A stretch of DNA of 64,000 bases from Candidatus Undinarchaeota archaeon (GTDB lineage: Archaea; Undinarchaeota; Undinarchaeia; Undinarchaeales; UBA543), in contig CAZWSR010000003.1 of the NCBI GenBank assembly GCA_964636545.1, positions 6,947 to 70,946 of the forward strand, in the 5' to 3' direction. A program made the position numbers and the translations under genes. Positions within the stretch are counted from its first letter, which is position 1, and every line of letters starts with the position of its first letter. A model generated the notes under the pieces. That model was not told the DNA's origin. It saw only the letters and a program-made list of their open reading frames with translations, and ran no database searches. This document shows, piece by piece, positions 14,981 to 61,661 of the stretch.

Positions 14981-15382
14981 TTATTCGCCCCCAGTTATTT
15001 GTGCGAGAACAGCATCGAAATCACATTCAATATCCGGGCCTAACTGAACTGCGAATGGTTCTATAGCACCTTCATATGCTGGAATAAGATGAACATGAGT
15101 GTGTGGAACATCCACTCCCATTACAAGCAAAAACACGTACTTAGCGCTTAGTTTTTCTTTTAGGTTTTTTGCGAGCTTTTGGCTTAGGGCGAACAGTTCT
15201 TTTACTTCGTTTTCTGGCATTTCCAGAAATGTTTCGTAATGGCTTTTTGGTATTACGAGTGCGTGGCCTTTTGCTGTTGGATTTATGTCCAGAAACGCGA
15301 GAAACTTTTCGTCCTCGTGAATTTTTTTGCTTGGTATTTCGTTTTTTACTATTTTGCAGAAGATGCAGTTTTCGTTTGTCAT
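14981..15382 (-). CDS. hit: HIT family nucleotide hydrolase
   Basis: CIFCKI N-terminus and the HTHVHLIP histidine triad; GAGGA SD-like sequence upstream. Confidence 0.93.
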   Translation of the reverse strand: MTNENCIFCKIVKNEIPSKKIHEDEKFLAFLDINPTAKGHALVIPKSHYETFLEMPENEVKELFALSQKLAKNLKEKLSAKYVFLLVMGVDVPHTHVHLIPAYEGAIEPFAVQLGPDIECDFDAVLAQITGGE

Positions 15383-15821
15383 TTTTTCCTCTTTTTCCCT
15401 TTGATAAGGTTTTAGGTTTTTGGTTTTTGGTTTTTGGTTTGATTAGAAACGAATCAAAAATTGACTCAAATGATTTTGCTTTCGGTGCCCCGGCTCCACG
15501 GCGCCCCGGCTTTACTTTTTTCGGTTTTTTCTTACTCAGCTTAGCAACTCTGTCAAACATTTTGTCCTTGGAAATAACTAACTGTTTACCTTTTTTGGTG
15601 ATTTTGACAACGCCATACCATTTTAGAACTTGCGTTTCTGAAACAGCTGCGGCTGGAGAGATTTTGACTTTGTCAGGAAATTTGACACAATACTCGCGAA
15701 TGTCGTCATCATAAACAACTGTAAGGGACTTACGCTTTTTTGCTCGAAAAATAGCATCCAAGATAAGAACTGTATTTTTTCCCGGCTCTCCAATTACTTT
15801 TAGAATGTTATCAGGAAGCAT
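15141..15821 (-). CDS. Hypothetical basic protein; the C-terminal 80 codons overlap the HIT gene in another frame
   Basis: TTTAAA box and GAGGTG SD upstream of the ATG. The N-terminal ~100 aa look globular, followed by repeat-derived peptides and a K/R-rich tail. Confidence 0.6.
   Translation of the reverse strand: MLPDNILKVIGEPGKNTVLILDAIFRAKKRKSLTVVYDDDIREYCVKFPDKVKISPAAAVSETQVLKWYGVVKITKKGKQLVISKDKMFDRVAKLSKKKPKKVKPGRRGAGAPKAKSFESIFDSFLIKPKTKNQKPKTLSKGKRGKNDKRKLHLLQNSKKRNTKQKNSRGRKVSRVSGHKSNSKRPRTRNTKKPLRNISGNARKRSKRTVRPKPKARKKPKRKTKR
15408..15442. repeat. AT-rich heptamer array (GGTTTTW x5), coding in-frame for KPKTKNQKPKT
   Basis: ggtttta ggttttt ggttttt ggttttt ggtttga. Confidence 0.8.
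15483..15514. repeat. GC-rich octamer array (single arm), in-frame in the 226-aa ORF (KPGRRGAGAPK)
   Basis: cggtgccc cggctcca cggcgccc cggcttta. Confidence 0.85.
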
Positions 15822-26102: not shown

Positions 26103-26175
26103 TTAAGGTAGTAGGCAGTTGGCACTAGGTAGTAGGTCTTACCCACTGCCCCCTGCCCACCACCCACAACCTTAA
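26103..26175. repeat. GGTAGTA-family heptamer hairpin, both arms, bounded by TTAAGGT...ACCTTAA
   Basis: ttaa ggtagta ggcagtt ggcacta ggtagta ggtcttacc cactgcc ccctgcc caccacc cacaacc ttaa. Confidence 0.85.
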
Positions 26176-29365: not shown

Positions 29366-29422
29366 GCTAAGTTTTGTAAAAATAATGATTTATAAGTTTA
29401 TCCAATGGGTTAAATTGGTTCG

Positions 29423-29457
29423 GGTAGTAGGCAGGGGGCAGGGGGTAGTAGGATTAG
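29423..29457. repeat. GGTAGTA-family heptamer arm
   Basis: ggtagta ggcaggg ggcaggg ggtagta ggattag. Confidence 0.8.
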
Positions 29458-30502: not shown

Positions 30503-30581
30503 TTTGGTTTTTGGTTAAATGTATCGGGCATCTGGCTTCGGGTATCAGGCCTGATACCTGATGCCTGTTACCTGATCCCTA
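30503..30581 (-). repeat. CAGGTAT-family heptamer hairpin between eno and rps2
   Basis: Minus strand caggtaa caggcat caggtat cagg-cctgata cccgaag ccagatg cccgata catttaa ccaaaaa; perfect 18-bp palindrome ggtatcaggcctgatacc at 30541-30558. Confidence 0.88.
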
Positions 30582-31800
30582 TTTTGCCCATCCCAGCTTC
30601 TGTTTTTTCAGCGATTCTGAGTAGCTCATCGAGCTTTGCAATTCGTTCTCCCCCAGTCACGCCGCACTTAATGATAGGTGCGGAAAAGCCAACAGCAATA
30701 TGAGATATTGATGTATCTGTAGTCTCACCAGAACGATGTGACACCACAGGAGTGTACATATTCTCAATAGCCGTGTTTATAACCTTTTCTGTATCTGTGA
30801 GTGAGCCGATTTGATTTGGTTTTACAATTATAGAATTAGCTGATTTTTGCTTTATGCACTTGTCAAAAATCTTCGGATTGGTGACAGTTAGGTCATCTGC
30901 AACAACCAAACATTGATTTCCAACCCTTTTTGTAAGCTCAGCAAATGACTTAAAATCGGCCTCATGAAACGGATCTTCAAGATAGAAAATTCCAAAATGG
31001 TCAACAAGTTGTTCCATATAATCAATTTGTTCTGCAGGAGTTTTCTTAACTCCATTCTTGTAAACATAAGCTTCTTTGTCAGCATTCCAGAACTGAGTTG
31101 CTGCTAAATCCAGACCAGATTTGACTGTAAAACCAACTTGGTCAGATGTCTTAATACAAGCTGCAACCAAGATTTCAAGAGCTTCATCATTATCCATTTG
31201 CGGAGCCCAGCCACCTTCATCATTTCTACCTTTTGTGAAATTCGGAATTTTTGATTTAATAAGCTCAAGCACGATCTTGTGTGCGGTTTCATTCGCCATT
31301 ACTGCATCATGAATATTATCTGCACCAGTTGGGATGACAAGATATTCCTGGAAATCAGGACTTCCTTTTCCAGCATGCGCACCCCCGCCAATCACATTTC
31401 CAAGCGGAAACGGCATTGTGTAATTATTTGTTTTTGTGAAAATTTCAAAAAAATCTTTTCCATCAACTTCTGCTTTCAGCTTGCCAACAGCCATTGACAA
31501 CGCAACTGCAAGATTGCCCCCAAGCAATGAAAAACCAGGATCAAGCTCCTTGAATTTTGAATCAACTTGATGAAAATCAGCAGAAATATTTACAAACTTT
31601 TCAGCATAAGAATCATTGAATCGCTTAACTGCTGCTGCAACTCCTTGCTTTGGAAATGCAATAACTTCATTGGATCCAGTTGATGCACCAGAAGGCGCTG
31701 CCGCGATTGCACTTTGTTTTCCAGCCCAGACCTCAACTTCAATTGTTGGGTTTCCACGTGAATCAATTATTTCTCTTGCATGTAATTTTGTAATAGGCAT
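30568..31800 (-). CDS. eno: Enolase
   Basis: IIDSRGNPTIEV, PSGASTG, NVIGGGAH, KPNQIG and SHRSGET. Start at MPITKL (31800), with a TATA box about 25 nt upstream. Confidence 0.95.
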   Translation of the reverse strand: MPITKLHAREIIDSRGNPTIEVEVWAGKQSAIAAAPSGASTGSNEVIAFPKQGVAAAVKRFNDSYAEKFVNISADFHQVDSKFKELDPGFSLLGGNLAVALSMAVGKLKAEVDGKDFFEIFTKTNNYTMPFPLGNVIGGGAHAGKGSPDFQEYLVIPTGADNIHDAVMANETAHKIVLELIKSKIPNFTKGRNDEGGWAPQMDNDEALEILVAACIKTSDQVGFTVKSGLDLAATQFWNADKEAYVYKNGVKKTPAEQIDYMEQLVDHFGIFYLEDPFHEADFKSFAELTKRVGNQCLVVADDLTVTNPKIFDKCIKQKSANSIIVKPNQIGSLTDTEKVINTAIENMYTPVVSHRSGETTDTSISHIAVGFSAPIIKCGVTGGERIAKLDELLRIAEKTEAGMGKIGIR

Positions 31801-31856
31801 GAAAAAGAGTAGGCTGTTCGTTATATAAATACGTTGAGTTCGTTGATATTTTTTCA

Positions 31857-31923
31857 GGGGCTCCGGGGCGCAGGGGCTCAGTAGATCCGTACGGCGCTCC
31901 GGCTCCACGGATTCACGGCTCCC
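31857..31923. repeat. GC-rich octamer hairpin between the divergent eno and psmB promoters
   Basis: ggggctcc ggggcgca ggggctca gtagatccgta cggcgctc cggctcca cggattca cggctccc. Confidence 0.88.
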
Positions 31924-32018
31924 ATTATCAAATTTAACCAATAATAAAACTTATAAACCCAACAATCAACACTTAACCAAGCAATTTTAAGAGTTTTAAA
32001 ACTTTAAAGGTGAGAATA

Positions 32019-48889: not shown

Positions 48890-49005
48890 TAGTTGTGAAA
48901 GGAAAAACAAGAGATATAATAAAATAGACAGAAAGGTTGTTATATTATAAAGATATTTGGTAGCTGACCCAAAACTAATTTAAACCAAACAATTAACTCT
49001 AAATT

Positions 49006-49806
49006 ATGAAAAATCAGGAATGGCTAGCAACCTGCCAAGCAATCGGCGATGAGGCATCAAGAGAGGTTATGCATTATTACAAACGCAATACAGGGACTGA
49101 GGAGATTGGACGAGGTTATGGCGGAGATATGACAATGCAGGTTGACAAGATTGCTGAGGACATTATTATCAAACACCTGAAAAAAACAAATGAAAACATC
49201 AAATTAACCACAGAAGAAGCAGGAGTTGTGAAAATCGGGAAAGGTGAACCAGATTATTTAGTATTTGCAGATCCGCTGGACGGCTCATTCAATTTCAAAA
49301 TGGGAATTGGTTATTTTGGAACTTCAATCGCCGTTCTAGATGCAAAAAAGAATATTGATGTTGTTGGCTACACTAAAAATTTTGTAAGCAAATCAGAATA
49401 TTATGCAATGCTTGGCAAAGGTGCTTTCAAAAATGGAGACAGAGTTTACACAAGCAAGAAAGAAACACCTGAAAACGTTATGCTGGAATGCTCGTATGGT
49501 GCAAATTTTGATAGTATTAAAAAAATCACAGATGTTTTTCACACAGCACGACACTCCAGAATGGCTGGAGCAGTTGCAATTGATTACTGCAAAGTTGCAA
49601 GTGGCGGATTTGATGCTTTGATTTACGCTGGATCAAAAAGATATTTAGATGTTGTTGCAGGAAATTTCATTATCAAGGAAGCAGGTGGAGTGATTACTGA
49701 CTTTACTGGCAATGAAACAATTTACAAAGGAAATGAGCTTCTTGCAAGTGATTTGCTGGTTTGCGGAAACACGAAAATTCGAGATTATATTTTGGGGAAG
49801 AAATGA
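49006..49806 (+). CDS. suhB: Inositol monophosphatase / FBPase (SuhB family)
   Basis: TEE, DPLDGS and YLDVVAG...EAGG. Confidence 0.9.
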   Translation: MKNQEWLATCQAIGDEASREVMHYYKRNTGTEEIGRGYGGDMTMQVDKIAEDIIIKHLKKTNENIKLTTEEAGVVKIGKGEPDYLVFADPLDGSFNFKMGIGYFGTSIAVLDAKKNIDVVGYTKNFVSKSEYYAMLGKGAFKNGDRVYTSKKETPENVMLECSYGANFDSIKKITDVFHTARHSRMAGAVAIDYCKVASGGFDALIYAGSKRYLDVVAGNFIIKEAGGVITDFTGNETIYKGNELLASDLLVCGNTKIRDYILGKK

Positions 49807-50576
49807 TTACAGTTGTCTTAATTGAACCACATTATTCTGGGAATATTGGCTCAGTTTGCAGAGCTATGAAGAATTTTGGATTTAGTAAATTGGAATTTGT
49901 TAATCCAAAAAAGATTACAGCTGAAGCTGGGATGATGGCTGTTCATGCAAAAGATGTTCTGGAAAAAGCAAAAACAGTAACTAAGTTTGATTTTAAGAAA
50001 TATGATTATGTAATTGGAACAAGTTGCAAAGCAACAGAAAAGGATGATTATTTTTTGAGAATGACAACGCCACTGAAAGAGTTGAAAAAGAAATTTGGGG
50101 CACCGGGGCGCGGGGGCGCCGCTGGACAGAAACGGCGCTCCGGATCCACGGCGCTCCGGCCAACTGGAAAGATAGCAATTGTGTTTGGTCCAGAACCTTC
50201 TGGCTTGTCAAATGAATTTCTTGAGAAATGTGATATCATCACAACAATCCCAACTTCTCCAAAATACAGAAGCATGAATTTGTCACACGCTGTTGCAGTA
50301 GTGCTGTACGAACTTGCAGGTAGTGGGCAGGGGGCAGTGAGCAGTGGGGCAACAGTGCGATTAGCAAATTCAAAGGAGAAATCACTAATCAATACCAATA
50401 TGAAAAGTATTGTTAAGAAAAGTGGTTATCCTGCTGAAAAACACAAAGTATTTAACAGCATGTTCCAGAAGCTCCTAGGGAGAGCAGTAGTAACTGGGAG
50501 AGAAGCAAACACATTAATAGGCGTTCTCAAACGTATAAAGAAGGCAACAGGCGTCAGGGATCAGGCATCAGGATAA
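49803..50576 (+). CDS. trmJ: TrmJ/TrmH-family SPOUT tRNA methyltransferase carrying repeat-derived in-frame insertions
   Basis: VLIEPHYSGNIGSVCRAMKNFG, VFGPEPSGLSNE and SMNLSHAV; ATGA overlap with suhB. Confidence 0.92.
   Translation: MITVVLIEPHYSGNIGSVCRAMKNFGFSKLEFVNPKKITAEAGMMAVHAKDVLEKAKTVTKFDFKKYDYVIGTSCKATEKDDYFLRMTTPLKELKKKFGAPGRGGAAGQKRRSGSTALRPTGKIAIVFGPEPSGLSNEFLEKCDIITTIPTSPKYRSMNLSHAVAVVLYELAGSGQGAVSSGATVRLANSKEKSLINTNMKSIVKKSGYPAEKHKVFNSMFQKLLGRAVVTGREANTLIGVLKRIKKATGVRDQASG
50097..50164. repeat. GC-rich octamer hairpin, in-frame inside trmJ (GAPGRGGAAGQKRRSGSTALRPT)
   Basis: ggggcacc ggggcgcg ggggcgcc gctggacagaaa cggcgctc cggatcca cggcgctc cggccaac. Confidence 0.9.
50319..50346. 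repeat. GGTAGTA-family heptamer arm, in-frame in the trmJ linker (GSGQGAVSS)
   Basis: ggtagtg ggcaggg ggcagtg agcagtg. Confidence 0.8.
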
Positions 50577-50616
50577 CAAAACCTGATACCAGAAACCCGA
50601 TACCTGATACCTGTAA
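50548..50616 (+). repeat. CAGGTAT-family heptamer hairpin encoding the trmJ C-terminus and stop
   Basis: caggcgt cagggat caggcat caggata acaaaa cctgata ccagaaa cccgata cctgata cctgtaa. Confidence 0.88.
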
Positions 50617-50635
50617 AAAAGAGGTAAATAAAAAA

Positions 50636-51928
50636 ATGTCATTACTTATGGGCGGCGGCGGATCAACAGTTCAGACAATGATAAACTGGGGTATAATGCT
50701 TTTTATCTTCATGTTTATTTTGCCTAAATTGTACTTTTACCAGATATTTTCAAAACTGGAACTAAGTGCTAGGAAACTTGAGGCACTTTCTGATAAAGCT
50801 CAGAAACAATTGCTCAAAGATACAAAAAAATGGAGCAATAGCCAGAGTGGGCCAAAGGGAATTCTCAAAGGCTTTATTGACTTTTTCATGATACCCCCAA
50901 TTAATCTTGATCCATTTGGAATTGTTAAGAAACTGGGTCACATGATAGACCACACAGAAAACAGGTTCAAAGAAACTGCAAAACAAATGGTGCCAAAAGC
51001 AAATAGTGAGCAGATAATGAATGTGAATATGGGATTGCAAGCAGCAACCATGCTCCACCAGCTCTCAAAAATAGTTAGACACTATGTTGAAATGGCAAAG
51101 AAATTCAAGAACTTGCAAATCGCAATGATAATTCAGATGCAGATGCCAATACTTGAGAAAATCGCAGAAGCACAATATGATGGAATGGAAACTTTCCTCA
51201 AAGGAGAAGCAATTGGAGATGCAGCAGGACCGCTAACAATCGCCAGTTTGCTTGACAAAGAAGGAAAAGAAATTGCACAAGATGTTGTTGCAGTAACTGA
51301 AAAGAAATGGGGCAGAAACATAACATTCCTTAAAGCAAGTGGACCAGGTGGACGCCTTGGAAAACTTGGAGAAGCTGTTGCAAAAGCTTGCAAAGGCAGG
51401 AAAATAACAAAAATAATCACAATTGACGCTGCTCAGAAGCTTGAAGGAGAGAAAACAGGCAGTGTTGCAGAAGGAGTAGGTGTTGCAATGGGTGGAGCGG
51501 GAGTACAGAGATCGCAAATTGAAGCAACTGCAGTTACTTTAGGTGTTCCAGTTGAAGCAGTTGCAATAAAAATGAGTCCTTTCCAGGCAATTAAGCCAAT
51601 GACAATTAATGTATTGAAAGCAATTGACAAGGCAACTGGATTACTTAGAATGAGAGTAGAAGCCACACCGAAAGGTTCAAATATAGTAGTGATTGGTGTA
51701 GGTAACACTTGTGGTATTCCTAACACAAACAAAAACCTTAAAAGCGTTGAGGAAGCCATAAAGAAAGCCGCTAGGAAGAAAAAAGCAGAAGAACAGAAGA
51801 AAATGAAGAAAGGCCTGTTCAAGAGAAAGAAAAAACAAGGCGACTATGACGATGATGATGTGCCAGCTACTGGTTCAATGTCAAAACTTGGGATGTTCAT
51901 GAATTTCATGTATTCCAGAATAAGATAA
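50636..51928 (+). CDS. DUF1512 family protein
   Basis: N-terminal TM; GDAAGP, IITIDAAQKLEGEKTGSVAEGVGVAMGG and IGVGNTCG. Confidence 0.88.
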   Translation: MSLLMGGGGSTVQTMINWGIMLFIFMFILPKLYFYQIFSKLELSARKLEALSDKAQKQLLKDTKKWSNSQSGPKGILKGFIDFFMIPPINLDPFGIVKKLGHMIDHTENRFKETAKQMVPKANSEQIMNVNMGLQAATMLHQLSKIVRHYVEMAKKFKNLQIAMIIQMQMPILEKIAEAQYDGMETFLKGEAIGDAAGPLTIASLLDKEGKEIAQDVVAVTEKKWGRNITFLKASGPGGRLGKLGEAVAKACKGRKITKIITIDAAQKLEGEKTGSVAEGVGVAMGGAGVQRSQIEATAVTLGVPVEAVAIKMSPFQAIKPMTINVLKAIDKATGLLRMRVEATPKGSNIVVIGVGNTCGIPNTNKNLKSVEEAIKKAARKKKAEEQKKMKKGLFKRKKKQGDYDDDDVPATGSMSKLGMFMNFMYSRIR

Positions 51929-52013
51929 GAGGCATCAGGTGTCAGCAGTCAGCCATCAGGACCTGATGGCTGAAGGCCGAGGGCTGAAACCTTAACCAAG
52001 AGGACAAATAAAA
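51929..52013 (+). repeat. CAGGTAT/TCAGC-family heptamer hairpin upstream of uL16
   Basis: Perfect 12-bp arms tcagccatcagg-a-cctgatggctga at 51949-51973; ends ccttaaccaagagga...ATG. Confidence 0.9.
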
Positions 52014-52544
52014 ATGGGTGAACGAAGAGGAGGAATTTACGCAAGGTTCGATTCAAGGCCGAACTGTAGAAAGAGTGAGCGAAAGCCTCGAAAAGGATAT
52101 GTAAAAGGAGTTCCAGGACTACGAATTCACCACTTCCACACAGGAAACAGGAAAAGCAAATTTGATATTGAACTTTCACTTGCACCAGAGAATGATGTTC
52201 AGATAAAGCACACAGCTCTGGAAGCAGCTCGTATTAGCGCTGGAAAAACACTTGCAACCAAACTTGGCGAGCAGAATTTTCATTTACTTATTAGAAAGTA
52301 CCCACACCACATTTTGAGGGAAAACTCAATGGCTACTGGTGCTGGTGCAGACCGATTTTCAAGTGGTATGAGCAAATCTTTTGGTAGACCTATTGGAATG
52401 GCAGCCCGTGTTAGACGCGGAGAGAAGATTATGAGCTTGTTTGTTCCAAAAGGCAGTGAAGTTGTTGCAAAAGATGCACTACGAAGAGCAAATATGAAAT
52501 TCCCAGCAAGATGCAGTACCACTATTGAGAAGGTATTGGAATAA
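52014..52544 (+). CDS. rpl10e: 50S ribosomal protein L10e/L16 (uL16)
   Basis: ALEAARI, YPHHILREN...GAGADR and GMSKSFGRPIG. Confidence 0.95.
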   Translation: MGERRGGIYARFDSRPNCRKSERKPRKGYVKGVPGLRIHHFHTGNRKSKFDIELSLAPENDVQIKHTALEAARISAGKTLATKLGEQNFHLLIRKYPHHILRENSMATGAGADRFSSGMSKSFGRPIGMAARVRRGEKIMSLFVPKGSEVVAKDALRRANMKFPARCSTTIEKVLE

Positions 52545-52590
52545 AGCAGATTTCTAAAAGAATTTATACTAAAAAGTTAAAGGAATAGCC

Positions 52591-53451
52591 ATGACACCAT
52601 CCTGGAGAAGAAAATTTGAGGAATTTAATAACGAGAAGGTAGTTGATACGATTCTTGAAAAACTTGAGACTAACATAAGAGACAAGGACGAAAAAAAGAG
52701 GGAAGTTGAAATAGACTGGGATCATGACGGAGATACAGATGCATGGGAAAGAAATGAACGGACCATTGCAGAATTTGTTAACAAAGAAAAATTTATTTCA
52801 AAACTTGTGAAAGGAGTAAAACCAATAAGAGTGGATGGAAATGAAAGATTTTATGGATTATTTGCACAAGAAATAGATGGCTGGAAAGTTCTACTAGAAC
52901 CATGGACACAAGTGGACAAAGGAAAGGTAATTAGTGCAGAGTATGAGAGTGTTACGATAATTATAGCAAAGATAGACAACAAAAGAAATTTGGAATACAA
53001 GGCTGATCGAATCTATGGAGAACATTTAGCAGTACAACATGAAGATTGCTCATCTTTTTTAGGTGCAAAATTTGACTTGAAATTCAAAACATCAAAGAAT
53101 CCAAAGGGCCTGATTCTTGGAGAAGATTTGTATGATTTCGCAGGAGAACTTATTGAATTATCAAAAAGTATGGATTGTGGAATAGGAGTAAAAAACATTA
53201 AGCAGAAAAAGAACGGAGAGTTGAAATTCCATGGAGGAATACATATCTACCCTCGTTTTCAAAGCTCATTTAAGAACAATAAAATGAAGATACAAATGGG
53301 TTATGCTTTATTTTATAGAGAAGGATATGAGTTATGGGGCAACAGAATAGGATTGAACAAAACAGATGATAAGGCAAATGGAGTTGAACTAAAGATCCCA
53401 TATACAACAGGAGATCTTGATGATCTTGGATTTACAGACGGAGAGTCGTGA
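52591..53451 (+). CDS. Hypothetical protein
   Basis: 286 aa ORF with a TTTATA box upstream; no recognised motif. Confidence 0.65.
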   Translation: MTPSWRRKFEEFNNEKVVDTILEKLETNIRDKDEKKREVEIDWDHDGDTDAWERNERTIAEFVNKEKFISKLVKGVKPIRVDGNERFYGLFAQEIDGWKVLLEPWTQVDKGKVISAEYESVTIIIAKIDNKRNLEYKADRIYGEHLAVQHEDCSSFLGAKFDLKFKTSKNPKGLILGEDLYDFAGELIELSKSMDCGIGVKNIKQKKNGELKFHGGIHIYPRFQSSFKNNKMKIQMGYALFYREGYELWGNRIGLNKTDDKANGVELKIPYTTGDLDDLGFTDGES

Positions 53452-53518: not shown

Positions 53519-56266
53519 ATGGATTATATTGTATGGTTCAAAGATTTGAATAAAAAAAGCATCAGCGTAGCTGGAGGTAAAGGAGCAAACCTTGGTGAGC
53601 TGACTGCTGCTGGAATGCCAGTGCCTGAAGGTTTTATTTTAACTGCACAAACCTACAAGAAATTTATTGACGAGGCAGATCTGAATGAAGACATAAACGA
53701 AATTCTAAAGGACTTGGATGTTGAGGATAATGACAAACTGCAGAAGGCATCAAAAGATATTGGAAGTATGATAACTGGTTCTCCAATGCCAGATGAAGTG
53801 CAGGAAGCAATCAAAACCGAGTATGAAAAAATTGAATCAACTGATAATATTATAATTGCAGGAACAGGGCAAGAACCAGGAGAATTTGTTGCAGTGCGCT
53901 CTTCAGCAACTGCAGAGGACCTGCCAGGCGCAAGTTTCGCAGGCCAACAAGCAACTTTCTTGAATGTGAAAGGTGGAACCAACCTAATCCACGCAGTAAA
54001 AGAGTGCTGGGCTTCATTGTTTACAGCAAGAGCAATTTATTATCGTGTGAAAAAAGGTTTTGAGCATGAGAAAGTTCTGATTTCAGTTATTGTTCAGAAA
54101 ATGATTGACTCAGACAAGTCAGGAGTTATGTTTACTGTAAATCCAGTTGATAATGACCGCTCAAAAATTTCAATTGACTCTGCTTGGGGACTTGGAGAAG
54201 CAATTGTTGGCGGACAAGTTACTCCAGATCACTTCCTTGTTGATAAAGAAACACAAGAAATTACAGAAAGTAAAGTTTCTAAAAAGGACTTCATGTACAC
54301 CCGAGATATTGCAGAAGGAAACACAACAAAAGTGACTTTGACTGACGAAACCGCGAATAAGAGCTCAGTTACTGATGAGGAAGTTAAAACTCTTGCTGAG
54401 TTTGGGAAGAAGATTGAGGCGCATTATGATTATCCACAAGATATTGAATGGGCAATTGATAGTGGTGAATTTTTCATTTTGCAATCAAGGCCAGTTACGA
54501 CTTTAGGGGATGAAGATGGAAAGGCAGTAGGTAGTGGGCAGAAGGCAGTAGCTGAAAAACCTCAAACCACTGCACCAACAGGCGATGTTTTAGTAAAAGG
54601 TTTTGGCGCAAGCCCAGGAATTGGCGGCGGAAAAGTGAAGATTGTTCACGATGCTAGTGAATTAACAAAAGTTGAAAAAGGAAATGTGCTTGTTGCTAAA
54701 ATGACTAGCCCAGATATGGTTCCAGCAATGGAAAGAGCAAGTGCAATTGTCACAAATGAAGGTGGAGTAACTTGTCATGCTGCAATTGTTTCACGAGAAC
54801 TTGGAATACCATGTATTGTTGGAAGTGAAAATGCAACTGAAGTTTTGAAAGATGATCAAGAAGTCACAGTTGATGCAAAAGCAGGAGTTGTTTACCCTGG
54901 AATAAAAGCAAATGCAAGCACAGAACCAATAAAACTTGAAACAGCTGACAAAATCCCAACAAAAACAAAGATTTATGTTAATTTAGGAATTCCAAGCAAG
55001 GCAAAAGAGGTTGCTGCACTGCCAGTTGACGGTGTTGGTTTGATGCGAGAAGAATTTTTAATTGCTTCGCAGATTGGTGAGCACCCACTTGCAATGATTG
55101 AACGTGGAGCATCGCAGGAGTTTATTGACAAATTAGCTGACGGAATTCAGCAAGTTGCTGAAGCATTTAATCCACGACCAGTTGTTCTGCGACTAAGTGA
55201 TTTGAAAACAAATGAGTACCATGACTTGAAAGGTGGAGATAAATTTGAAGATCCTGAAGATAATCCAATGATTGGATGGCGCGGATGCTCAAGATACACT
55301 TCTGACAAATACAAAGAGGCATTCAAGCTTGAATTGAAAGCTGTGAAGAAGGTGCGTGATGCTGGTTTCAAGAATATTGTAATAATGTTACCGTTTGTTA
55401 GAAAACTTGATGATGTTACACGAGTTACAGAACTGATGAAAGAAGAAGGACTTGAGCGCGGCGAGGACTTGAAATTATGGATAATGGCAGAAGTTCCTTC
55501 AGTTGTTATTCTTGCTGACGAATTTGCAAAACTTGTTGATGGATTTTCAATTGGCAGTAATGATTTAACTCAATTGACAATGGGAGCAGACCGCGATTCT
55601 GAATTGCTTGAGAAACTTGGTTATTTTGATGAGCGAGATGAAGCAGTTATGCGATCAATTGCACGTTTGATAAAATTAGGAAATAATGCAGGAATTACTG
55701 TTTCAATTTGCGGACAAGCACCTAGCACAAAGCCAGAGATTATCAAAGTTTTAGTTGAGAAAGGAATTACTTCAATAAGTGCAAATCCAGATGTTGCTGT
55801 GCAGACAATGAAAATGGTTGCTCAGGAAGAGAGTAAGATTACTTTAGCTAAGGATGAAATTGAATCAGGGGCTCCGGGGCGCAGTGAAACCGGGGCGACG
55901 GAGCGGAGTATAGACGTAGAGACGAAAACAGAACCTCAAACTCCAAACCCACAACCCCAAACCACTGAACCAATTGAAATACAAACTCCAAGCCATGTAG
56001 AACCGAAACCACCTAGCGCACCAGCCCCTATGCCACCTAAAGAAGAATCAGAGAAAAAGCAAGAGAACCTACCCCATTTTTCACCTCCAGCACAACTTCC
56101 AAAAAAAGATGATGACGAAGACGACGAGGATGACGATGATAATGGATTTATTGAGAAAGTAGAAGATGTTGTTGAAGATATTGGAGATAAAGTTGAAGAA
56201 ATTGGAGAAAAAGTAACTGGATTTTTCAGGCATGATAAGGACGAGGAAGGGAAGGAAGAAGAATAG
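53519..56266 (+). CDS. ppsA: Phosphoenolpyruvate synthase with a long low-complexity C-terminal extension
   Basis: GGKGANLGEL, AVRSSATAEDLPGASFAGQQ, GGVTCHAAIVSRELG, NPMIGWRG and SIGSNDLTQ. Confidence 0.96.
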   Translation: MDYIVWFKDLNKKSISVAGGKGANLGELTAAGMPVPEGFILTAQTYKKFIDEADLNEDINEILKDLDVEDNDKLQKASKDIGSMITGSPMPDEVQEAIKTEYEKIESTDNIIIAGTGQEPGEFVAVRSSATAEDLPGASFAGQQATFLNVKGGTNLIHAVKECWASLFTARAIYYRVKKGFEHEKVLISVIVQKMIDSDKSGVMFTVNPVDNDRSKISIDSAWGLGEAIVGGQVTPDHFLVDKETQEITESKVSKKDFMYTRDIAEGNTTKVTLTDETANKSSVTDEEVKTLAEFGKKIEAHYDYPQDIEWAIDSGEFFILQSRPVTTLGDEDGKAVGSGQKAVAEKPQTTAPTGDVLVKGFGASPGIGGGKVKIVHDASELTKVEKGNVLVAKMTSPDMVPAMERASAIVTNEGGVTCHAAIVSRELGIPCIVGSENATEVLKDDQEVTVDAKAGVVYPGIKANASTEPIKLETADKIPTKTKIYVNLGIPSKAKEVAALPVDGVGLMREEFLIASQIGEHPLAMIERGASQEFIDKLADGIQQVAEAFNPRPVVLRLSDLKTNEYHDLKGGDKFEDPEDNPMIGWRGCSRYTSDKYKEAFKLELKAVKKVRDAGFKNIVIMLPFVRKLDDVTRVTELMKEEGLERGEDLKLWIMAEVPSVVILADEFAKLVDGFSIGSNDLTQLTMGADRDSELLEKLGYFDERDEAVMRSIARLIKLGNNAGITVSICGQAPSTKPEIIKVLVEKGITSISANPDVAVQTMKMVAQEESKITLAKDEIESGAPGRSETGATERSIDVETKTEPQTPNPQPQTTEPIEIQTPSHVEPKPPSAPAPMPPKEESEKKQENLPHFSPPAQLPKKDDDEDDEDDDDNGFIEKVEDVVEDIGDKVEEIGEKVTGFFRHDKDEEGKEEE
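54523..54550. repeat. GGTAGTA-family heptamer arm, in-frame in the ppsA inter-domain linker (KAVGSGQKAV)
   Basis: ggcagta ggtagtg ggcagaa ggcagta. Confidence 0.8.
55868..55907. repeat. GC-rich octamer arm, in-frame in the ppsA tail (GAPGRSETGATER)
   Basis: ggggctcc ggggcgca gtgaaacc ggggcgac ggagcgga. Confidence 0.8.
55934..55968. repeat. Heptamer arm, in-frame in the ppsA tail (PQTPNPQPQT)
   Basis: cctcaaa ctccaaa cccacaa ccccaaa ccactga. Confidence 0.65.
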
Positions 56267-56302: not shown

Positions 56303-57286
56303 ATGCAAGACAAGATTTTACAAGCAGTTCAGGAAAAAGGAGCAAAGAAGATAGGACTGCAGGTTCCAGAAGGCCTGAAGAACAAGGCAGTTGAGTGGGC
56401 ACAAGAAATTGAGAAAACTGGAGCAAAAGTTTATATTTTCGCTGATCCATGCTATGGAGCTTGTGATTTATGGGATTTTGAAGCAGACCGACTTGGTTGC
56501 GATTTGCTAATTCATGTTGGGCATTCTACAATTGGAATTGAAGAAAAAATTCCAACAGTTTACATTGAATATGAATCTGACTTGGATATTTCAAAAATTG
56601 TTGAGAAAGCTGGACAGGAAATTGAAGAAAAAAAGATTGTATTAACCACTACACTGCAACACATCAAACAACTTGATAAAATTAAAGAAATTCTGGAAAA
56701 ATCTGGAAAAGAAGTTGTTATTGGAAAAGCAGGAACTCGTTCAAAATATGATGGACAGATTCTTGGATGCGACCCAGGAGTTATTGCTGATGCAGATGCA
56801 TATCTTTACATTGGTACTGGAAACTTCCACGCAATTGAAATTGCACTTGCAACAGGCAAAAAAGTTTACATTGCTGATCCTGAGCTTGACCAAATTAGGA
56901 TTTTAGATGATGAAAAAGAGGAATTCTTAAGAAAACGATTTGCAAAAATTGAGAATGTGAAGGGGGCGCCGGGGCGCCGGGGCGCCGGGGCTCAGAAGTT
57001 CGGTATTCTGGTCAGCATAAAACCAGGTCAGAACCGAATGGACTTGGCTGAAAAACTGAAAAAGATGTGTGAAGAGAAAGGAAAGCAAGCAGAAATTCTT
57101 GTGATGGACTACATTAGCCCAGAAAAACTACTTGGATTTGGATTTGATGCATATGTAAACACAGCTTGTCCGCGAATTGCTATTGATGATTCTGGAAATT
57201 ATGACAAGCCGCTACTAACTCCGCAGGAATTAGAGATTGTTCTGGGAATTAGAGAATGGGAAAAATATAAATTAGATAGATTCTAA
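56303..57286 (+). CDS. dph2: Diphthamide biosynthesis radical-SAM enzyme Dph2
   Basis: Three Fe-S cysteines in DPCYGACD, ILGCD and TACPR; LQVPEGLK. Confidence 0.94.
   Translation: MQDKILQAVQEKGAKKIGLQVPEGLKNKAVEWAQEIEKTGAKVYIFADPCYGACDLWDFEADRLGCDLLIHVGHSTIGIEEKIPTVYIEYESDLDISKIVEKAGQEIEEKKIVLTTTLQHIKQLDKIKEILEKSGKEVVIGKAGTRSKYDGQILGCDPGVIADADAYLYIGTGNFHAIEIALATGKKVYIADPELDQIRILDDEKEEFLRKRFAKIENVKGAPGRRGAGAQKFGILVSIKPGQNRMDLAEKLKKMCEEKGKQAEILVMDYISPEKLLGFGFDAYVNTACPRIAIDDSGNYDKPLLTPQELEIVLGIREWEKYKLDRF
56963..56994. repeat. GC-rich octamer array, in-frame in dph2 (GAPGRRGAGAQ)
   Basis: ggggcgcc x3 perfect, followed by ggggctca. Confidence 0.9.
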
Positions 57287-61165: not shown

Positions 61166-61414
61166 ATGACTCCAACAACAATTCAACTTGACACAAACAC
61201 AAAACATCGTCTTGACGAGCTTAAGCCTTATCCAAGAGCGACTTATGATGAGGTGGTAGTTCAGCTAATACAAGTTTCTGAAAATCTTAGTAAGGAACCT
61301 GAACTGAAGGAGAAAGTTATGCAAGATATCAAAGAAGCAAGAAAGAATTTTCAGCTTGGAAAAACAATAAGTACAGATGAACTTTTGAAGGAACTTGGTA
61401 TTAATGACTTATGA
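61166..61414 (+). CDS. Antitoxin (RelB-like, RHH-type N-terminus)
   Basis: TTIQLDTNTKHRLDELK...TYDEVV; acidic C-terminus ISTDELLKELG overlapping the toxin start. Confidence 0.8.
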   Translation: MTPTTIQLDTNTKHRLDELKPYPRATYDEVVVQLIQVSENLSKEPELKEKVMQDIKEARKNFQLGKTISTDELLKELGINDL

Positions 61415-61661
61415 AATCGTGTGGGATCCTAAAACAAAAAAATGTCTCAAAAAACTAGAAACAAAATGGATTAGAGAAATTATTAGAAAAGTTCGTGAAT
61501 GTGCTGAAAACCCGTTTCTTTACCTGAAAAAACTAAAAGGAGATAACGGATGGCGGTTACGTGTCGGTGATTTTAGAGTTATTATTGACATATATTCAGC
61601 AGAAAATAAAATGAATATTACAACATTAGGCCACAGGAAGGATATTTACAAAGAAGTGTAG
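61404..61661 (+). CDS. relE: RelE/ParE-family toxin
   Basis: LKKLKG...WRLRVGDFRVI...GHRKDIY. Confidence 0.9.
   Translation: MTYEIVWDPKTKKCLKKLETKWIREIIRKVRECAENPFLYLKKLKGDNGWRLRVGDFRVIIDIYSAENKMNITTLGHRKDIYKEV

Follow-up and report, generated by a model that had tools for sequence, protein, structure and literature searches.

The 64,000-nt stretch of contig CAZWSR010000003.1 analysed in this study (hereafter the window) carries a gene of the TrmJ/YjtD family of SPOUT tRNA 2'-O-methyltransferases, located between an inositol-monophosphatase-family gene and a DUF1512 gene, whose reading frame contains segments of three different families of short-unit DNA repeats. The gene content of the window is that of archaeal housekeeping functions (exosome, proteasome, RNase P, FttA/aCPSF1, PCNA, FtsZ/SepF). 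The nearest genomic matches are 'archaeon UBA543' (83% identity, with the same gene order) and a 'Candidatus Undinarchaeota' metagenome-assembled genome (69%), and the host lineage appears to be a marine Undinarchaeota-like DPANN archaeon.

Several independent comparisons place the protein in the TrmJ family. It scores 95.1 bits against the Pfam model PF00588 (SpoU_methylase; cut-off 29.7; 5.3e-27) and 189.8 bits against NCBIfam TIGR00050 (TrmJ/YjtD), i.e. above the curated cut-off of 167.15; the latter match falls into two stretches, broken by the first of the repeat segments (insert 1). The closest solved relatives by sequence in the PDB are the TrmJ proteins of H. influenzae (3ILK), Sulfolobus acidocaldarius (4CNF) and E. 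coli (4XBO). An AlphaFold2 model built from a 26-sequence alignment has a mean predicted local distance difference test score (pLDDT) of 86 and displays the SPOUT alpha/beta fold with a C-terminal helical extension (helices at 190-248) found in solved TrmJ structures. The best Foldseek matches of this model are all TrmJ (4XBO_B, 3ILK, 5GRA, 4CNF), and the match to full-length E. coli TrmJ (4XBO_B) has an E-value of 1.2e-15 and template modelling scores of 0.69/0.77. The motifs checked were the N-terminal GNxG..R, FGxExxGL and IPxxxxxxS-NLS-A...YE; all invariant SPOUT columns of the alignment (N14, G16, R20, G129, E131, G134, P150, N159, L160, S161, H162 and Y169) are kept. With the Sulfolobus TrmJ equivalog model NF041077 the score (105.8) is below the cut-off (350), and the substrate specificity is therefore assigned at the subfamily level only; at this level, 2'-O-methylation of tRNA position 32 is the predicted activity.

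The three repeat segments (Table 1) are an octamer hairpin (insert 1), a one-arm heptamer array (insert 2) and a heptamer hairpin at the 3' end of the gene, and each belongs to a family that is over-represented in the window. Insert 1 stands in place of four codons (KNKK) of insert-free orthologs, which gives a net gain of 57 nt (19 aa). The net gain at insert 2, which in the codon alignment is confined to the window lineage, is 15 nt (5 aa), and the tail formed by the third segment is read in-frame to its stop codon. A pLDDT below 50 occurs in the model only at residues 101-116, 177-180 and 255-257, i.e. in the three repeat segments. Insert 1 is placed between helix 91-97 and strand 124-128, which leads into the FGPE motif, and insert 2 between the SPOUT domain and the C-terminal helical extension. 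In alpha/beta folds of the SPOUT kind the cofactor is bound where the strands have their C-terminal ends; since insert 1 enters at the N-terminal end of strand 124-128, it is probably remote from the active site, as judged from the fold topology. Most of the original prediction, which had been made from the DNA letters without database searches, is borne out by these data: a TrmJ gene with an intact catalytic core contains in-frame loops and a tail derived from three repeat families, these map to low-confidence loops and termini of an otherwise confident model, and the size proposed for insert 1 (roughly 22 aa) was close to the 23 codons found.

Table 1. Positions in the window of the TrmJ gene, its repeat segments and related repeat copies in other genes and junctions
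Feature	Position	Strand	Remarks
TrmJ/YjtD-family SPOUT tRNA 2'-O-methyltransferase gene	49803..50576	+	257 aa; assigned with Pfam, NCBIfam, PDB and AlphaFold2/Foldseek
Insert 1, octamer hairpin (GGGGCGCC-type)	50097-50165	+	23 codons, G99-T121, peptide GAPGRGGAAGQKRRSGSTALRPT
Insert 1, 5' arm	50097..50120	+	Octamers GGGGCACC GGGGCGCG GGGGCGCC; peptide GAPGRGGA
Insert 1, loop	50121..50133	+	GCTGGACAGAAAC, 13 nt; part most diverged from L005
Insert 1, 3' arm	50134..50165	+	GGCGCTCC GGATCCAC GGCGCTCC GGCC plus AACT; composite GGNGCYCC-GGMTYCAC-GGNGCYCC, recurring at other loci
Insert 2, one-arm GGYAGT heptamer array	50316..50350	+	About 5 GGYAGTG units; linker after ...VVLYEL, residues ~172-183
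3' hairpin (ATCAGG-family heptamers), 5' arm	50543..50572	+	GGCAACA GGCGTCA GGGATCA GGCATCA GG; last 10 codons, A248-G257
3' hairpin, loop	50573..50581	+	ATAACAAAA; holds the TrmJ stop TAA, 50574-50576
3' hairpin, 3' arm	about 50582..50613	+	CC TGATACC AGAAACC CGATACC TGATACC TG; intergenic
Relic of ancestral TrmJ end (...AAG AGG TAA)	50619..50627	+	AAGAGGTAA; empty-site comparison with L009 and L012, reading '...AAATTAAAGAGGTAAGAAAAAAATG'
Octamer family in diphthamide synthase (Dph2) gene	56963..56986	+	Three perfect GGGGCGCC units, in-frame; +8 aa, GAPGRRGA; absent from L016, L012, L017
GGYAGT heptamers in linker of pyruvate phosphate dikinase (PPDK)/phosphoenolpyruvate synthase	54521..54551	+	In-frame; whole AGTCAGC-family hairpin at the same site in L016 (UBA543)
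Octamer-family insert in PPDK C-terminal region	55865..55925	+	GAPGRSETGATERS...; shorter form in L009 and L012
TCAGC/TCAGG heptamer hairpin between DUF1512 and L10e	51930..51990		z -5.6
Full octamer hairpin upstream of enolase start	31852..31920		Composite order as in insert 1

The way in which the TrmJ gene acquired its present C-terminus can be followed by comparison with relatives. Orthologs without the 3' hairpin terminate in ...KKLKR, and in repeat-free relatives the gene ends with ...AAG AGG TAA, the DUF1512 start being 7 nt further on. In the window, AAGAGGTAA persists downstream of the hairpin, where it is now only a Shine-Dalgarno-like site for the DUF1512 gene (ATG at 50636). Hence the hairpin landed a few codons before the old stop and provided both a new tail and a new stop. 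Its fold is significant when compared with shuffled sequences (z -5.0); that of insert 1 (-39 kcal/mol, z -1.9) is ordinary for its G+C content, and for insert 2 neither a partner arm nor a significant fold (z -0.5) was found. The antisense RNA of the 3' hairpin (50538-50620) is the better folder (-39.7 vs -26.1 kcal/mol), because C.A mismatches turn into G.U pairs. A comparison of the folding of both strands across 11 hairpins, as an indicator of a function in the sense RNA, showed no consistent rule of preference for the transcribed strand. An intrinsic terminator (a hairpin followed by a U-run) was also considered and rejected, the region 49000-52600 containing one terminator-like match, on the antisense strand, vs 3.4 in shuffled sequences.

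The distribution of the inserts among TrmJ orthologs is patchy. In the 26-sequence alignment, insert 1 is common only to the window and its sister P0001. In P0003 and P0004 this codon position is occupied by an octamer segment that is shorter and consists of a single arm of the insert-1 3'-arm type (in P0003 four octamers in place of 8 nt, net +24 nt), and the remaining orthologs, near and distant, have four residues there; the 5' arm is missing from P0002, P0005-P0009 and every distant ortholog. In the TrmJ tree, the window groups with P0001 (bootstrap 100%) and P0003 with P0004 (93%), the insert-less P0007 being the sister of the latter pair (95%). The filled alleles have lost the ancestral KNKK, and precise loss therefore cannot restore the empty state; for this reason, the sequence comparison indicates that site 1 was probably occupied twice independently. 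At site 2, P0002 (locus L011) carries a different heptamer, GGCGTCA, in four copies, and repeat-free relatives have neither the heptamer insert nor the repeat tail. The expectation that these loops are short in repeat-free proteins thus holds for site 1, where no aligned octamer-free ortholog has extra residues, and fails in part for site 2, where the linker is naturally longer in some distant orthologs (P0027, P0017, P0032), which marks it as a length-tolerant position.

The repeat families found in TrmJ are abundant throughout the window. Period-7 arrays number 25 and period-8 arrays 11, compared with 0.55 and 0.85 expected from Markov simulations, and the GGYAGT, octamer and ATCAGG family patterns have 12, 8 and 16 matches (0.00, 0.03 and 0.16 expected). 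At least 13 lineage-specific coding inserts were recognized (in TrmJ, at two sites of a small methyltransferase, at 2-3 sites of PPDK, in Dph2 and in the ORF hyp45128), and the downstream frame is intact in all of them. The methyltransferase inserts, found in relatives, are octamers, and a further open reading frame (ORF; 15141..15821) contains both an octamer array and a GGTTTTT array. The octamer arrays are almost pure G+C and stop-free in every frame, GGCAGTG units are open in the sense orientation, and ATCAGGC is open only in that orientation, which is consistent with its use in the TrmJ tail. A scan of the window against Rfam detected two tRNAs only, and no known RNA family at the repeats.

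The segments are not artefacts of a single assembly. An identical TrmJ protein is encoded on seven contigs from independent metagenomes, and the DNA of the region is unchanged in contigs of four unrelated seawater and vent runs. No unit-number variants occurred in the contigs of these four runs, which is weak evidence, since contigs drop rare variants. One sample contained a divergent relative that is 57 nt shorter over the insert-1 region (136 nt replacing 193), exactly the net size of the insert.

Short-unit repeat hairpins occur in one subclade only. Over the 64 kb of the window, 36 segments with period 7 or 8 were detected (0.56 per kb), and the density in loci L005-L014 and L016 is 0.3-2.9 arrays per kb; none was found in L015, L017 and L018, and nearly all of the 77 other loci are at 0-0.2 per kb. 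The repeat-free sister lineage (L015, L017) has the same gene order and a TrmJ about 70% identical. Gene junctions measure about 0-45 nt in the repeat-free genomes, and that between DUF1512 and L10e, occupied by a hairpin in the window, is only a few nucleotides long and hairpin-free in L009, L012 and L017. Repeats also turn over within the subclade: the family at the TrmJ 3' junction varies from lineage to lineage, and upstream of the RNA polymerase L gene each of three lineages has a family of its own in the junction.

Three elements within one gene had been taken as a sign that TrmJ is a hotspot. The probability of at least three elements in 814 bp is 0.004 per stretch; the window comprises about 79 such stretches, so this value is not significant, and a hotspot by density was rejected once multiple testing was considered. 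PPDK has as many inserts as TrmJ, and in-frame copies are present in Dph2, the methyltransferase and other ORFs. What survives of the proposal is that the same sites were hit independently in relatives, and the recurrence of insertions at permissive sites is real. TrmJ is therefore not a special target; it exemplifies what the repeats of this lineage do at every permissive site.

Some of the other copies have individual features. The Dph2 array (56963-56993, three GGGGCGCC units followed by GGGGCTC) looks like the youngest insert, and its four GGGG runs with 4-nt spacers fit a G-quadruplex motif. The enolase ORF (30568-31941, minus strand) is inflated: the Pfam Enolase_N match starts at residue 50, residues 8-30 are encoded by the octamer hairpin (31852-31920) and precede MPITKLH, the probable true start, and the last two or three codons and the stop come from an ATCAGG hairpin (30520-30581). 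A GGYAGT hairpin (26106-26173) and a single-arm array (29421-29453) are located between divergently transcribed genes, in promoter regions; not being at 3' ends, they indicate that not all elements are transcript-end structures. In the UBA543 locus, the hairpins that follow TrmJ and DUF1512 (L016:7195-7330 and L016:8575-8700) each have a nested element of about 25 nt in the 3' arm; these elements, ATTCAGCTGCTCAAACAGCTCAAAA and ATCAAGTTGACTCAAACAAGTCAAAA, look like a second, smaller dispersed element inserting into heptamer arrays. In the UBA543 lineage, L10e and PPDK are separated by a 361-aa ORF that gives a weak LAGLIDADG_3 match (L005:7981-9066 / L016:9466-10551), and in the corresponding place the window has an unrelated 286-aa ORF without a Pfam match (52591-53451). 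Further downstream (61166-61661), a small DUF7557 ORF is followed by an ORF of the ParE toxin family, an arrangement that resembles a toxin-antitoxin pair, here within a reduced genome.

We consider it likely that the segments in TrmJ derive from dispersed short-unit repeat elements that are copied around the genome, and of which only stop-free, frame-keeping copies at permissive sites survive. The genome of one Undinarchaeota-like subclade is peppered with tandem heptamers of several families and with a G+C-only octamer family of fixed composite order, mostly as two inverted arms forming a hairpin and sometimes as a single arm. According to this explanation, the elements would land, or persist, only where a very compact genome tolerates them, i.e. 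in the intervals that follow a stop codon and precede the promoter or ribosome-binding site of the next gene and, within genes, in surface loops, interdomain linkers and termini, where selection would presumably remove any copy that contains a stop or shifts the frame. Three survivors would then be seen in TrmJ: a complete octamer hairpin, located in the loop that precedes the strand towards SPOUT motif 2, a heptamer array with one arm, located in the linker to the C-terminal domain, and a junction hairpin a few codons before the old stop, the gene reading through its 5' arm and stopping in its loop. The peptides added in this way, in which G, A, P, R and S are frequent, are most likely disordered and tolerated as passengers.

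Microsatellite-like growth, in which replication slippage and fold-back copying would extend sequence already present at the site and the families would reflect convergence or slippage bias, seems to us rather unlikely, and yet several details have this appearance: in Dph2, the three perfect units adjoin a fourth, GGGGCTCA, that overlaps native ...GCTCAG; the outer units of the TrmJ 3' hairpin merge into native sequence (AAGAAGG, CAACAGG, CGTCAGG); arrays grade into each other, TCAGG and TCAGC units being mixed at 51930; and unrelated viral contigs commonly contain heptamer arrays whose cores have arbitrary sequences. However, slippage by itself makes no inverted arm, and identical 12-mers such as GGTAGTGGGCAG are common to the TrmJ and PPDK arrays. 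The non-periodic composite order (GGNGCYCC, GGMTYCAC, GGNGCYCC) recurs at window positions 15482, 31852 and 50134, and within a single genome (L009) the TrmJ and methyltransferase copies of the octamer module TC-GGAGCCCC-GGATTCAC-GGAGNCCC-GGAGCCCC agree at 31/32 positions. This recurrence at unrelated loci favours copying between them. Its vehicle could be miniature transposable elements, MITE-like (miniature inverted-repeat transposable element) or REP-like (repetitive extragenic palindrome), mobilized by a transposase, or an enzyme of the REP-associated tyrosine transposase (RAYT) type, encoded elsewhere in the genome, in which case TrmJ would have been hit three times. We regard this as unlikely: inverted arms are present, inverted sequences form the ends of the octamer element (TTCAGGGGC...GCCCCTGAA), the families are scattered over the genome and limited to certain lineages, and a further element of about 25 nt is nested in the L016 hairpins, but one-arm copies are common, copies differ in unit number, target-site duplications are absent, filled sites instead replacing a few native bases and sharing microhomology with the target (Dph2 ...GCTCAG; methyltransferase ...CTGAA), and no transposase-like protein was found among the scanned window proteins.

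A function for the inserts is, in our judgement, very unlikely to be the explanation of their presence. The Arg/Gly-rich loop GAPGRGGAAGQKRRSGSTALRPT, with five basic residues, could together with a longer linker aid tRNA binding, or the hairpin could regulate translation or mRNA stability; a basic loop in an RNA-modifying enzyme, a site filled also in a second clade (P0003/P0004) and the unusual conservation of insert 1 DNA between two lineages about 15% apart in protein are in keeping with such a role. Against this, close relatives, including the sister of P0003/P0004, work without insert 1, the same peptides occur in unrelated enzymes (Dph2, PPDK, methyltransferase), the conservation reaches synonymous positions and hence is not protein-level constraint, and the hairpin energy is unexceptional for its composition. 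It is barely conceivable that the segments are removed before the protein is made (intron- or intein-like) or are assembly artefacts, and these readings were rejected. The insert-1 hairpin superficially resembles substrates of RNA processing, but the coding inserts are all multiples of 3 and stop-free, one-arm inserts cannot make a bulge-helix-bulge structure, and all segments are far too short for inteins; if inserts were removed before translation, the chance that 13 of them would keep the frame is about (1/3)^13. Identical sequences in independent assemblies and runs speak against artefacts.

Several observations weigh against the copying and tolerance of dispersed elements, which we nevertheless prefer. 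At none of the compared empty and filled sites (TrmJ, Dph2, methyltransferase, gene junctions) was a target-site duplication found. No transposase, RAYT or reverse transcriptase was present among the 63 window proteins scanned against Pfam, a set that leaves out a few window ORFs and represents part of the genome. None of the RNA sequencing runs examined contained the TrmJ gene, and neither RNA nor protein evidence of insert expression was found. Insert 1 is more conserved than a purely neutral passenger should be, its nucleotide identity between the window and L005 being 92.8% vs 80.4% in the rest of the gene, and 87% vs 63% at third positions (Fisher p 0.02); these comparisons point to a constraint at the nucleic-acid level, homogenization with other copies, or later acquisition. 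Finally, the orthologous 3' hairpins of the window (50543-50611) and UBA543 (L016, 7207-7300) occupy the same position and have 4+4 units and a similar loop, and differ by TCA vs TTA in all four 5' units, most 3'-arm units having the matching change. An identical base change throughout the units is not what simple insertion and subsequent decay would leave; it is a concerted change rather than a set of independent point mutations and, together with the conservation of insert 1, suggests homogenization or re-templating. Taking this further, one can tentatively imagine an active, hitherto undescribed repeat-writing process in one Undinarchaeales subclade, which would place hairpins at gene ends and in loops, re-template them in a concerted manner (with a C-to-T change in each unit while position, unit number and loop stay) and recurrently generate Arg/Gly-rich disordered segments in the housekeeping enzymes of a minimal genome. 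We find this idea improbable at present; such a process could be a class of non-autonomous elements, or a mechanism of templated repair or gene conversion.

The genomes of DPANN archaea are among the smallest and most compact of all cells, yet in one lineage dozens of repeat hairpins are tolerated per 64 kb, some of them translated inside essential enzymes. This constitutes a natural experiment on which protein sites accept insertions, and shows selfish or mutational repeats making new disordered peptide in a minimal proteome. The contrast between sister genomes with and without repeats offers a way to approach, through comparison of gene content, the origin of heptamer repeats, which even in cyanobacteria is unsolved. 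The mechanism that generates the repeats and the concerted changes in hairpins are the more interesting questions. There is also a practical consequence for annotation, as the repeats move stop codons and inflate ORFs (e.g. at the C-terminus of TrmJ and in the enolase ORF, which is extended upstream).

Literature searches brought up no description of comparable repeats from Undinarchaeota or DPANN archaea. Heptamer arrays are common in viral contigs of the IMG/VR database: those with the TCAGG core and with a control core, AGTCG, each occur in more than 100 contigs, and GGYAGT matched 107 contigs. The unit length alone is thus not special. At three high-GC viral loci (L104, L107, L132) there are heptamer hairpins of near-identical design, e.g. 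GATCAGGCATCAGGTATCAGGCATCAGG-TTTT-CCTGATCCCCGATCCC; the composite octamer module had no exact match in viral contigs. With REP/BIME (bacterial interspersed mosaic element)-RAYT systems and prokaryotic MITEs, the window elements share the form of short, dispersed, imperfect palindromes at gene junctions; they differ in their internal 7/8-nt periodicity, in the many intragenic and translated copies, and in lacking target-site duplications at the compared sites and a RAYT or transposase among the scanned window proteins.

Heptamer repeats of the cyanobacterial short tandemly repeated repetitive (STRR) type were reportedly described by Mazel et al. in 1990. In architecture, the repeats of the window agree with this class in being tandem, 7 nt long, divided into several families, over-represented, mostly intergenic and close to gene ends or starts. 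Bacterial heptamer tandem repeats, among them the TAACTGA repeats of Beggiatoaceae, cyanobacteria and Bacteroidetes, likewise comprise several, mostly intergenic families, whose origin is unsolved (PMC4679880; PMC4692102). Such repeats differ between close relatives, as they also do in the window subclade. Unlike them, the window arrays are typically paired inverted arms with periodic mismatches, are accompanied by an octamer family, reside in a DPANN host, and in several cases are translated inside conserved enzymes.

Two further systems are known in which repeats contribute peptide to proteins. Borg tandem repeats create intrinsically disordered regions (PMC9879509). Like the repeats of the window, they are tandem, evolve fast, are specific to lineages, lie in DNA associated with archaea and supply proteins with disordered peptide of low complexity. 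Intragenic Borg repeats are said to have unit lengths divisible by three, whereas the window units measure 7 or 8 nt, so that adding or removing one unit would change the reading frame, and the encoded peptide repeats after three units, with a period of 7 or 8 aa; the window arrays are also imperfect, often form hairpins, and lie on a cellular chromosome. Rickettsia palindromic elements (RPEs) are dispersed palindromic families of a reduced genome, many copies of which lie in-frame in unrelated housekeeping genes, where the fold and function of the protein are compatible with the peptide that is added (PMC10969869). The likeness, a dispersed palindromic element in-frame in unrelated genes, extends to the window. 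RPEs are about 100-150 bp long and have a family-specific conserved peptide, whereas the window elements are 15-70 nt long, consist of 7- or 8-nt tandem units in variable number, often have one arm only, and belong to an archaeon rather than to Rickettsia. By size, architecture and host they are not members of the RPE class, and no sequence relationship between the two is expected; as an analogy, however, the parallel drawn in the original prediction is apt, and RPEs are the closest functional counterpart, in-frame palindromic repeats giving rise to new peptide loops in both.

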